A stretch of DNA of 64,000 nt, taken from assembly GCA_964016885.1 (NCBI GenBank), contig OZ024743.1, positions 237,584,001 through 237,648,000 on the forward strand, written 5' to 3'. The stretch comes from Eledone cirrhosa (lineage: Eukaryota). The notes below the pieces were generated by a model, which saw only the letters and a program-made list of their open reading frames with translations, ran no database searches and was not told the DNA's origin. Below are positions 2,953 to 25,197 of this stretch, piece after piece; the stretch's first letter is position 1; each line of letters starts with the position of its first letter. Made by a program: the position numbers and the translations under genes.

Positions 2953-3152
2953 ATAGGAAAATGTTCAAGACCCCGGCAGCAGAGCTCAAGCCGTTTCGAC
3001 GGCTATTTCTAGAGTCCAGAAATAGCCGTCGAAACGGCTTGAGCTCTGCCGTCGGGGTCTTGAACATTTTCCTATTACCCACTCAACTACCCAAAATATT
3101 GAGTACTCTGGTGCGTTATGGTCCACCTGGTTCCTTATCACACTTCCTTCAT
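2953..3152 (+). mobile_element. Fold-back PLE terminal-repeat derivative (family B): 58-bp inverted arms plus unique tail, between (TA)n tracts
   Basis: Arms 2953-3010 and 3018-3075; the right arm holds an HHR 3' half, GAAA-CGGC-loop-GCCG-UC-GGGG. Confidence 0.75.
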
Positions 3153-3263
3153 TATATATATATATATATATATATATATATATATATATATATATATATA
3201 TATATATATATATATAGTGATGAAACATAAGTCAACTGCATGAACTCATAATCCTTTATTTAT

Positions 3264-3315
3264 TGCTATATATATTTCGATGATAGCCATTGAATGGCTA
3301 TGACCTCATCAGGCA
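3264..3315 (-). ncRNA. Type I hammerhead ribozyme motif (minimal stem III)
   Basis: Minus strand: tgc-CTGATGA-ggtc-atagcca-ttcaa-tggctat-catc-GAAA-tatata-TA-gca, followed by AATAAA. Confidence 0.75.
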
Positions 3316-3516
3316 GTTAGTCAGTTTTTAGATATGCCAGCTCTGTGTGTATAGTGTTGATGGTATCAGAGCCTTGGGACATATATATATATATATATAT
3401 ATATATATATATATATATATATGTATGTATATATATATGTATGTATGTATGTGTGTGTGTGTGTGTGTGTGTGTGTGTGTGTGTGTGTGTGTGTGTGTGT
3501 GTGTGTGTGTGTGTGT

Positions 3517-3598
3517 GTGTGTATGGCCGAGCGGTTAAGGCGATTGACTAGAAATCCGCTAGGGTTTCCCCACATAAGGTCGTGTCCTTTCGGTAATA
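3517..3598 (+). pseudogene. Degenerate tRNA-Ser(AGA) copy
   Basis: tggccgagcggttaaggcgattgactAGAaatcc...gggtttcccc matches the eukaryotic tRNA-Ser D arm, anticodon arm and variable arm; acceptor and T stems are broken. Confidence 0.75.
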
Positions 3599-3750
3599 TT
3601 TATGCTAATTATAAATCCAGCTCTGGCTGTGTGAACCGTCCCTTCAGTGAAGGACCTATGTAATTGGCGATCCAATAAATTCAAATCAAATAGTGTAAAG
3701 AATGCGAGTTTTAAACGAGTATAAACAGTAACTAACTTTCTCATTATTAA

Positions 3751-21947: not shown

Positions 21948-23975
21948 GTATGTATGTATGTATGTATGTATGTATGTATGTATGTATGTATGTATGTATG
22001 TATGTATGTATGTAAGTATGTATGTATGTGTGTATATATATATATATGTATGTATGTGTGTATGTGGGTATGTCTGTATGTATATGTATGCATGTGTGTA
22101 TGTGTGTGTATGTATGTATGTATGTATGTATGTATGTATGTATGTATGCATGTATATATGTGTGTATATATGTATGTATGCATGTATATATGTGTATATA
22201 TGTATGTATATATGTGTGTGTATATATGTATGTGTGTATGTATGTGTGTATGCATGTATGTATGTATGCATTTATGTATGTATGTGTGTATGTATGTGTG
22301 TATGTATGTATGTATTTATGTATGTATGTGTGTATGTATGTATGTATGTGTGTATGTATGTGCGTATGTATTTATGAATGCATGTATGTATGTGTGTATG
22401 TATGTGTGTATGCATATATATATGCATGCATGGATGTATGAATGTATATATGTATCTATGCATGCATGTATATATGTATCTATGTACACATGAATGTTTT
22501 GGTTGCCGACTCTGTGCAAGACATTTTAGATCATTGGCTGGGCTAAAAAGCCACATTCGATCGCAGCACTGTTAGTTGCTATCGTGTGTGTGTGTGTGTG
22601 TATAGATATGCTTATGTGTGTGCGTGTATGTGTATATATATATGTATATGTATATTATTATTGTTGTTGTCGTTATTATTATTGTTATTATTATTATTAT
22701 TATTAATGAATGTGTGTGTGTGTGTGTGTATGTATATGTATATATATATATATATATATATATATATATATATATATATATATTTCTTTTTTATTATTTT
22801 TTTCTTTTTTATTTATTTATTAATTTTTTTTTTCTCCTCGTGCAATGGCCATACTCGATAACGAGGGGGCAGCCATCATCATCATGTATATATGTATGTA
22901 AGTATGTATGTATATATATGTCTGTATGTCTGTATATACACATACATGTATGTAAGTATGTATGTATATATATATACATGTGTACATACATGTATGTGTA
23001 TATCTGCTTTACAGTATGTTTCGTCCCTCTCAGTTCAAATCCCGCCGATGTCAACTTTCCTCCATTCAAGGTCGATAAAATACCAGTCAAATACTGGTGT
23101 CGAGTCTTCCTCTATATCTCACTTCCTTTCTCTCTCTCCTTCTATCTTCCTCTGGGAAGGTATTCAGACCTGGAGAGGGGTGCCCCCCCCCCCTAGAAAA
23201 TATGCCCTAGAAACGCTGAATGCTAATACGACACCCCTACAACTGTATGTATATATATATATATATATATATATATATATATATCTGTATGTATATATAA
23301 GTATATATATTTATGTATTTATGTATGTATATATAAGTATATATATCTATATGTATATATATATATATATATATATATATATATATATATATATATATAT
23401 ATATATATATATATATATATATGTGTGTGTGTGTGTGTGTGTGTGTACGTGTATGTATGTATGAATATATGTATGTATGTAAATGTGTATGTATATATGC
23501 ATGCATGTAAGTATAATGCATGTATGTATGTATGTATGTATGTATGTATGCTTGCATATAAGTATGTATATAGGAATGTGTGTACGTGTGTATGTATGTA
23601 TGTGTGTATGTACGTATGTATGTATGTGTGTGTGTATGTGTGTATGTATGTATGTATGTATGTATGTATGTATGTATGTATGTATGTGTGTATGCATGTA
23701 TGTATGTATGTATGTATGTATGTATGTGTGTATGTGTGTATGTATGTATGTATATATGTGTGTATGTATGTATGTGTGTATGTATGTATGTATGTGTGTA
23801 TGTATGTATGTGTGTATGCATGTATGTATGTATGTATGCATGTATGCATGTATGTATGTATGTATGTACGTATGTATGTACGTATGTATGTATGTATGTG
23901 TGTGTGTATGTATGTATGTATGTATGTATGTATGTATGTATGTATGTATGTATGTATGTATATATGTGTGTATGT
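21948..23975. repeat. Large compound (TATG)n/(TG)n/(TA)n microsatellite field with an embedded SINE (23010-23210)
   Basis: Direct. Confidence 0.9.
22490..22580 (+). pseudogene. Isolated terminal C2H2 finger, most likely an RTE-clade LINE C-terminus
   Basis: CRLCARHFRSLAGLKSHIRSQH then stop; RTE ORFs often end in C..C.R.F.S..GL.SH.R.H; no TGEKP linker. Confidence 0.55.
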
Positions 23976-24184
23976 AACATACACAACATGCATAAACAAA
24001 TATTCGCTCTCCTATAATTATGTAAATTTTACATAGCTGAGAGTAGCCCGGGAAAAAAAGAATCCACCCACTTCGAATAAAGCCCGGGGGGTAGATATTG
24101 CCGAAATATGACAACCCTGAAACGGTAGTTCAGATAAAAAGGGGTATGTCTGGTGATGAGTGATCAACTGCTAGCTGAAGAGGG

Positions 24185-24675
24185 AGAGAGAGAGAGTGAG
24201 AAAGAGTGTGTGTGTAGATATTTGTTCATGCAGATAGATGTGTGAATGTATCTCTCTCTCTCTATATATATATATCTATCTATCTATCTATCTATCTATC
24301 TATCTATCTATCTATCTATATATCTATCTATCTCTCTCTATCTATATATCTCTCTATCACAGGGTCACAAGATTGTCTGATGACCCTGTGATAGAGATAG
24401 ATAGATAGATAGATAGATAGAGAGAGAGAGATACATACACACATCTATCTGCATGAGCAAATATCCACACACACACTTTCTCTCTCTCTCTCTCTCTCTC
24501 TCTCTCTCTCACACACACACACAGGGTCATCAGACAATCTGGTGACCCTGTGATAAACAGGCGAAACTCCAGAGTAACAAGACTCTCACTATTTAGCTTT
24601 AATAAAATGAATATTAAAACTCTACTTCGGTATTGAGTATTCTTTTTTCTCAGCCACCAACCACATACGGATATA
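24185..24675. mobile_element. Nested fold-back PLE terminal repeat (family E) with a degenerate HHR at 24535-24580
   Basis: Palindrome centred at ~24375 and a second hairpin at 24520-24552; CTGGTGA-c-cctgt-gataa-acagg-c-GAAA-ctc-ca-gag-TA-acaa; related partial copy at 50690-50805. Confidence 0.7.
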
Positions 24676-25079
24676 TATATATATCAGAATGGATGTAGTA
24701 AAAACCTGTTAGACACTCAGCAGAGTACCCGATATGTTATCCTTCACTCATTTACTATTATTACTCCAAGAACCTCTTAACTAAACACACGTGCTTTCGC
24801 CATAGATGCGGTTTAAGCTTGCCACCCATGGCGACCTCCCAAGAGCTTCTGTCACAATAAAATACATGCTGTTCTCTGTAAAGTGCACGAACGTATACCA
24901 ACAAGATGCAGTCACCGGCCCATCTGAAAGATCTGTCGTTCTGATTCAATACTGACTTGGTCTGTGACGACCTATCAAACCCTTGCTAACTGACGTTAAA
25001 TGGTATTGACACACACACACACACACACACACACACACACACACACACACACACACATATATATATATATATATATATA

Positions 25080-25197
25080 TGAAGGATTCGGCACCCCGAC
25101 GACTGAACTCCTGCCGTTTCAACAGCTATTTCGAAACAGTTCAGATCTAGCTGTTGAAACGGCAGGAGCTCAGCTGTCGGGTCCCGAATCCTTCATC
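25080..25197. mobile_element. Family B-related fold-back palindrome (diverged)
   Basis: gaaggattcgg...ccgtttcaacagcta / tagctgttGAAAcggcaggagctcagctGTCggg...ccgaatccttc. Confidence 0.7.

Follow-up and report, generated by a model that had tools for sequence, protein, structure and literature searches.

How does a genome come to hold thousands of short palindromes, each arm of which is only half a ribozyme? The question is raised by a stretch of 64,000 nucleotides (nt) of the Eledone cirrhosa genome (assembly GCA_964016885.1, contig OZ024743.1, positions 237,584,001 to 237,648,000 of the forward strand; "the window" below), in which three such palindromes and one half copy lie beside (TA)n repeats. 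A first-pass annotation, made from the letters alone, read each arm as the 3′ half of a type I hammerhead ribozyme (HHR) and attributed the symmetry to a complementary DNA (cDNA) that pauses in stem II of the ribozyme, snaps back and primes its own copying. We find that an abundant Penelope-like element (PLE) gave rise to the window copies, which are its shortest insertions. The positions at which their arms end suggest another origin: with a probability that we put at about 0.65, the copies are dead-end insertions that arose when two cDNAs, each primed separately, ran off the element RNA at its capped 5′ end and were then joined head to head.

All four copies are present, and their arms do correspond to the 3′ half of a type I hammerhead. 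Arm-to-arm complementarity is 94% in copies 1 and 2 and 84% in copy 4. (TA)n adjoins all four, the right side of copy 4 passing into a (CCA)n tract. The greater extent of one arm, already noticed in the first-pass annotation, is due to an extra tail of about 80 nt on one arm only (3075-3152 in copy 1; 8276-8354, minus strand, in copy 2). Scanning both strands gave no CTGANGA inside any of the four copies, again as annotated, and the 5′ core box and the 5′ strands of stems I and II are missing from all of them, so that none makes up a type I hammerhead. The Rfam scan of the window at the gathering threshold yielded no match. The element is numbered here from the A of TTAGT in loop II (+1), and the copies are laid out as follows:

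2953-3010, minus strand: copy 1, short tail-less arm, element about +62 to +6
3011-3012: copy 1, junction AG; the G at 3012 is position -1, where the parent base is T
3013-3074, plus strand: copy 1, long arm, element +1 to +62
3013, plus strand: copy 1, putative RNA start
3020-3030, plus strand: copy 1, 3′ strand of stem II
3031-3034, plus strand: copy 1, GAAA box
ending at 3052, plus strand: copy 1, stem III
3053, plus strand: copy 1, cleavage nucleotide C17
3054-3058, plus strand: copy 1, 3′ strand of stem I
3073-3074, plus strand: copy 1, TA of the short end
3075-3154, plus strand: copy 1, tail, element +63 to +142, terminating on TA at the (TA)n target
8276-8422, minus strand: copy 2, long tail-bearing arm, element about +140 to -7, with +1 at 8415
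8423-8489, plus strand: copy 2, short arm, element -5 to +62, with +1 at 8428
9093-9151, plus strand: copy 3, lone short arm, element +2 to the short end, between (TA)n runs, without partner arm or tail
25079-25128, minus strand: copy 4 (subfamily C), short arm in inverted orientation, element to about +11
25129-25137: copy 4, filler of 9 nt
25138-25214, plus strand: copy 4, direct arm from +1 with a tail remnant, followed by the (CCA)n tract

Either a cap-like G or mutation of a GACTC-type junction would account for the G at 3012. One layout prevails among thirty close genomic relatives of copy 1; it reads (TA)n, short inverted arm, variable centre, longer arm with the tail of about 80 nt, (TA)n. 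Such stubs frequently lie beside other stubs in one (TA)n tract (L011, L016, L061, L079, L125, L147 and L166), as is expected if every insertion leaves a new target.

The host genome of 3.0 Gb is rich in simple repeats. Searching it with a longer fold-back that retains upstream sequence (L012) yielded parent-like copies, near-full frames were recovered by protein search, and an endonuclease end was found further upstream of the hammerhead. In the parent, the tail region of copy 1 runs on into the leader of an open reading frame (ORF). The complete unit L161 consists of a truncated pseudo-long terminal repeat (pLTR) with an HHR, the tail, an open frame of 789 codons, the 3′ untranslated region and a second HHR-bearing pLTR that ends on TA in (TA)n, the two pLTRs being 3.55 kb apart. 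The frame contains the motifs FIQFD, YRDD, FLD and VIY...YIG of a reverse transcriptase (RT) with a GIY-YIG endonuclease at the C terminus. Partially tandem pLTRs with an optional tail and an inverted 5′-truncated copy were seen in L161, L162, L164, L166 and L168, as in PLEs with endonuclease (EN+), and 62 of 69 inverted arms begin directly at a (TA)n run, on which the tail also ends. The PLE origin proposed in the first-pass annotation was thereby substantiated.

The domain assignment rests on motifs, homologs and architecture, and the support from profiles is weak. Pfam gave no match to the parent protein; with 34 aligned homologs it gave a weak GIY-YIG match in 2 and RVT_1 in 1. The homologs number 849 at E <= 1e-20, and GIY-YIG and RVT_1 are carried by part of the members of the atlas look-alikes that score 0.96-0.97. 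A sequence search of the PDB with the alignment of the parent protein returned a single match with an E value of 0.54, which was taken as chance. By its motifs, the element probably belongs to the Hydra clade as described by Craig et al. (2021; PMC8557442). The C-terminal endonuclease, RWR (104), DKT (184), the CxCX5C linker (CNCPDRSIC, 639), CxxC before E (CNLCSEE, 737), CxH after N (CKH, 765), (TA)n insertion and the HHR are all shared; RWR, which is one residue off the RWK of that description, was counted as a match. The comparison was made with the published description of the clade. The unit found here, however, measures 3.55 kb whereas those of the clade are generally shorter than 3 kb, and its HHR has a U3-A8 core and a loop II of about 31 nt.

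The copies that retain upstream sequence read CCCC-TTGAAAA-G-TT-CGGCTATTT-loop-AAATAGCCG-TC-GAAA-CGGC-loop-GCCG-TC-GGGG. This is a predicted type I ribozyme with UUGANAA, GAAA, GUC, G10.1-C11.1, three helices and an NUH site, in which a U3-A8 pair replaces C3-G8. The first-pass annotation had expected a parent with CCCC and a CTGANGA box upstream of the same stem, together with a GIY-YIG frame. The CCCC, a core in that place and the frame were indeed found, but the core is UUGANAA, which is why it contains no CUGANGA box. Stem III has 5-6 bp. One fold is common to the three subfamilies: 91% of the cells of the HHR helices are paired across 12 copies, and 3 stem II pairs are changed on both sides, which amounts to few events since the aligned rows are related. 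Some full copies (L095, L164, L170) have CTGAGAA with a C3-A8 mismatch, possibly an intermediate between the canonical and the U3-A8 cores. The 3′ half of the ribozyme can also form its own hairpin of 6 bp around the GAAA box (L161:2915-2930, element +12 to +27), an alternative fold that can be adopted by an RNA starting at +1.

The stubs are numerous and their arms end at a preferred base. A 37-nt tail word has 1,944 exact matches in the genome against 0 for the reversed control, and at 1,045 loci both arms are complete to the same base (+1), so the pattern is not due to chance. The end positions were analysed in the first 91 of 100 listed tail matches on C1, which were picked by the 3′ tail only and hence not by their 5′ ends, and the arms were mapped against natural long copies. 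An inverted arm is present in 69 of these 91 copies, and its outer end lies at +61 to +65 in 60 of the 69. The outer ends thus have two fixed positions, +62 and +142, both on TA. At the inner side, +7 is reached by 100 arms, of which 92 end somewhere from +7 to -8. Over all 160 arms the number of stops per nt is 0.006 at +60 to +19, 0.012 in the 3′ strand of stem II, 0.09 at +7 to +2, 0.35 at +1 to -1, 0.13 at -2 to -8, 0.026 over the remaining loop and about 0.01 upstream of -25. The arms end within the last few bases of the parent loop II. The symmetry axis was placed in the stem II loop in the first-pass annotation, and the turning points do cluster there, although not at the tip of the hairpin. 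The profile has no peak at the HHR cut site (+41/+42), which rules out ribozyme cleavage as the source of the boundary. A stop rate of 0.013 per nt at +63 to +52, against 0.005 on each side, is no more than suggestive of a block of the tail-primed RT at the second priming site. Contigs from public runs, which may be the source sample, span head-to-head junctions. In the contigs of one such run the opposite-strand joints cluster at the same bases, and the summed depth, which is not a copy number, is far higher over the tail than upstream of the ribozyme.

The peak falls on the A of a conserved T(T/C)AGT(C/T), which is kept while the rest of loop II varies. Among 48 full-length HHR copies of the three subfamilies, T occurs at -2 in 47, a pyrimidine at -1 in 48, A at +1 in 46, G at +2 in 45, T at +3 in 46 and a pyrimidine at +4 in 48. 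The motif is initiator (Inr)-like, resembling the Drosophila Inr TCAGTY with A at +1 (PMC1779564), and the promoter and start of Penelope were located in its pLTR (PMC2377424). A capped RNA end predicts an extra G at -1, and full-length L1 insertions bear such a cap G (PMC11702581). In palindromes complete to +1, G at -1 is found on both arms at 119 loci compared with 19 for the C mirror control. All 13 one-base spacers among the first 50 of the 1,045 loci are C:G pairs (hand count). The 84 distinct single arms joined to (TA)n, counted by hand from 100 listed of 1,309 rows, have T at -1 in 52, G in 17, C in 10 and A in 5, the background for G being 2-7%. Splicing or trans-splicing to a 3′ site at TTTAG or CCAG was ruled out because the arms retain the AG and no common leader precedes them; the joints listed in the public-run contigs include no splice-like GT..AG joint.

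The two arms of a copy carry the same subfamily bases. In 20 of the 31 copies compared, the copy-specific block has at most one mismatch between own arms; cross-copy pairs agree this well in 131 of 930 cases (14%). Several of the 11 failures are register shifts caused by indels. The own arm was the best match in only 6 of the 31, since many copies share a subfamily, and the block test was used in its place. One and the same centre occurs with different subfamily blocks (4/4 in one centre class, 2/2 in three others), which indicates repeated independent formation and bears out the earlier claim that the symmetry is independent for each insertion. Mirrored blocks suggest one RNA or one source per event. 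A non-autonomous palindrome copied as a unit, like a miniature inverted-repeat transposable element (MITE), would account for thousands of similar-sized palindromes and for the recurrence of some centres, but we regard it as extremely improbable. The centres are of many types and not tied to particular blocks, the two ends are asymmetric in that they differ by the tail, there is no target site duplication beyond (TA)n and the sequence is a piece of a PLE pLTR; the first-pass annotation was right to describe the copies as something other than an ordinary MITE. Non-LTR retrozymes, defined as tandem arrays of units that are joined head to tail and contain a complete type I HHR apiece (bioRxiv 10.64898/2026.07.22.740005), were likewise ruled out, as the copies are head to head with half ribozymes. 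The snap-back of a single cDNA that pauses in stem II and copies itself on the ribozyme hairpin agrees with the mirrored bases and with turning points in loop II, and the helix itself is real, as the pairing and compensatory changes described above attest. Priming there requires a cDNA copy of the 5′ strand of stem II (about -25 to -35) and would leave the entire loop between perfect arms. The arms halt about 25 nt short of copying this strand, so the stem II hairpin cannot prime, and the 3′ end of the run-off cDNA is unpaired in predicted folds. The whole natural loop between perfect arms was seen in none of the 69 two-armed copies, the predicted product had no match in the genome and none was recognized by eye among 100 listed of 488 rows with spacers of 26-40 nt. 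The self-priming on stem II that the first-pass annotation proposed is consequently very improbable.

The reach of the arms bears on any single folded cDNA. A tail-primed cDNA that copies itself must reach furthest, yet the tail-less arm is the further-reaching one in 40 of the 69 two-armed copies, the tail-bearing arm in 21, and both are equal in 8. In L164 and L170 a tail-bearing inverted arm of about 65-150 nt stands beside a tail-less arm of more than 2 kb, so that copying of the partner cannot have produced the tail. These data fit two independently primed cDNAs. They are also at odds with a single cDNA that runs off the RNA start and then folds back or switches template by short microhomology, the endonuclease cutting the short end and later deletions blurring the junction. 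Such a cDNA would explain the mirrored bases and the +1 stop equally well, and one published proposal for head-to-head pLTR junctions is self-priming, there on an antisense template (PMC3846280); we nevertheless consider it unlikely, because it cannot place +1 and the extra G on both arms or form loops of 0-1 nt. Zero-loop perfect junctions were tried as evidence for two molecules and, being found only once in 69 by a strict test, were not used beyond the 0-1-nt spacers. Two cDNAs might alternatively have met a roadblock, either a structure or a protein, on the side of stem II that faces loop II, or else the end of a processed RNA, the G residues being fillers. The stop does lie 7 nt past a 9-bp helix, the CAG spacer described below can be templated and the subfamily C arms lack the G. 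We judge this quite unlikely all the same: within the helix the stop rate is low and its peak comes 7 nt further on, a conserved, Inr-like motif lies at the stop, the excess of G holds against bare (TA)n as well, and the ends of a control family cluster away from its stem II.

That control, also present in the window, is a second family; its hammerhead is canonical, its outer ends are the same two, and it has 1,451 exact matches. The 30 arms sampled were picked on the core and read by eye. Of these, 17 continue far upstream, 6 end 63-65 nt ahead of the core, 1 stops near -78 and 6 are shorter. The stop at 63-65 nt is at an Inr-like TCA|CT away from any stem II. End clustering thus occurs away from stem II too, and the stop of the U3-A8 family studied here is much stronger than that of the control.

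Several observations weigh against a run-off from a capped start. The usual base at -1 is T (44/48), a weaker Inr than TCAGT, and no clear downstream promoter element was seen. Most of the listed single arms (52/84) are joined through T, with no extra base, and the pooled check of cut arms gave 12 unexplained C against 15 unexplained G; all 10 subfamily C arms lacked the G. CAG/CTG, the double-G spacer seen most often (27 of 50 listed loci), equals element bases +5 to +7 and may be a templated filler copied from there, which weakens the count of 119 against 19; 3 of the double-G spacer loci are tandem duplicates. Sixteen arms stop at -2 to -8 and would need scattered starts, none of 10 long copies begins exactly at +1, and the stop of the control family is much leakier (17 of 30 arms pass it by far). 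Moreover, 7 of the 91 sample rows were corrected by hand, L086 and L087 look like one duplicated insertion, and later deletions within palindromes may have shifted some inner ends.

On balance we favour the two-cDNA run-off, which may be pictured as follows. Transcription would start at the A of TTAGT inside loop II, and of the ribozyme the RNA would thus have just the 3′ half at its start. Both (TA)n strands would be nicked by the RT/GIY-YIG protein, and one cDNA would be primed at the tail end (+142) and one at the pLTR end (+62), about 140 and 60 nt from the cap, both probably templated by the same RNA. The two cDNAs would run off the RNA end, often copying the cap as C, and their ends would be joined with trimming, microhomology or short templated fillers. 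Longer insertions would require a jump past +1 or a read-through template. The catalytic 5′ half is absent from the resulting stubs, which do not constitute an independent mobile unit. Retroviral strong-stop DNA is a short run-off cDNA made from a primer near the 5′ end of the RNA. A doubtful extension of the run-off scheme, which we mention tentatively, is that a start inside the HHR places the 3′ half at the capped end of the RNA and leaves the 5′ half at the opposite end; pairing between the two RNA ends through the long stem II would then form a split ribozyme, help the jump on which full copies depend and guide a strand transfer that rebuilds the pLTR, the palindromes being failed transfers with strong-stop-like DNA on both nicked strands.

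The scheme has a counterpart in vitro. The RT of the Anolis PLE Poseidon PAc cuts and extends both target strands; its synthesis begins at two internal sites, one on either side of the tail close to the 5′ end of the ORF, and HHR cleavage is not needed (Frangieh et al. 2024, PMC11167929). The two start sites and the extension of both strands match the two-cDNA reading. That element is of a different clade, however, and the main text of the paper is silent on head-to-head products, run-off at a capped start and cap copying. L1 twin priming also involves two RT reactions, one per target end, that are end-joined, and an extra G marks the capped RNA end (PMC11702581), but L1 arms barely overlap and their second priming site is random, whereas here both sites are fixed and the arms cover the same 60 nt. 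The known insertion unit of EN+ PLEs is a pLTR with an adjacent inverted 5′-truncated copy and an optional tail (PMC8557442; PMC3846280; PMC2377424). It shares with ours the head-to-head inverted junction, the tail at one end only, the microsatellite target and the partial-tandem full copies. The stubs differ in that they are two arms alone, whose inner ends accumulate at a single base beside a cap-like G and whose tail measures about 80 nt instead of 30-40, and the published explanation is self-priming on an antisense template. U3-A8 hammerheads were reported in the pLTRs of the Schistosoma Cercyon PLEs, where dual motifs on opposite strands 100-700 bp apart were noted (Cervera and de la Pena 2014, PMC4209133). 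They have the same core covariation, but are minimal, without stem III, while the present HHR has a stem III of 5-6 bp and a long loop II that would hold the start.

Other elements were observed as well. A hammerhead-like motif of another family (CTGATGA, short hairpin, GAAA) lies at about 3270-3320 on the minus strand, 150 nt from copy 1. Other PLE-like families are present as head-to-head palindromes in which each strand holds a complete canonical core; they occupy 18752-19149 (cores 18936- and 19059+), the family used as the control, and 56394-56767 (cores 56585- and 56701+). The region 14796-16948 is an inverted repeat of 928 nt, 99% complementary, with CTGAAGA...GAAA hammerhead-like motifs at 14982- and 16756+; its frames of 255-258 codons gave no Pfam match, and it is probably a young, long head-to-head PLE insertion. 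Two RT frames of the long interspersed nuclear element type, on the minus strand at 19323-22271 (982 codons, RVT_1 and zf-RVT) and 57395-61009 (1,204 codons, RVT_1, zf-RVT and AP endonuclease), have no relation to the PLE stubs. An apparent U3-A8 core (TTGAAAA-GCAG-loop-CTGC-GAAA) also occurs in a further palindromic family, seen at L111:1364-1534, L113:965-1134 and L131:552-716; its three centres nearly coincide, some 35 nt upstream of the core.

Published work already describes U3-A8 cores and (TA)n targeting as well as tails and head-to-head inverted pLTRs. Our literature search, from which most subscription papers were out of reach, turned up no paper that deals with strong-stop DNA, twin priming, a cap signature or a constant run-off point in PLEs or pLTRs, and the accessible part of the octopus repeat-annotation paper (PMC13282606) makes no mention of such palindromes. 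The element is ordinary; the mechanistic record in its stubs is not. Such stubs would be misfiled as MITEs, and their parents missed by CUGANGA searches. The exact base, the two priming sites and the junction spectrum are testable in the existing in vitro PLE system. The thousands of stubs would be a genomic record of aborted reactions; what they indicate is a capped template in the sense orientation and two primed cDNAs, which speaks against the published idea of self-priming on an antisense template.

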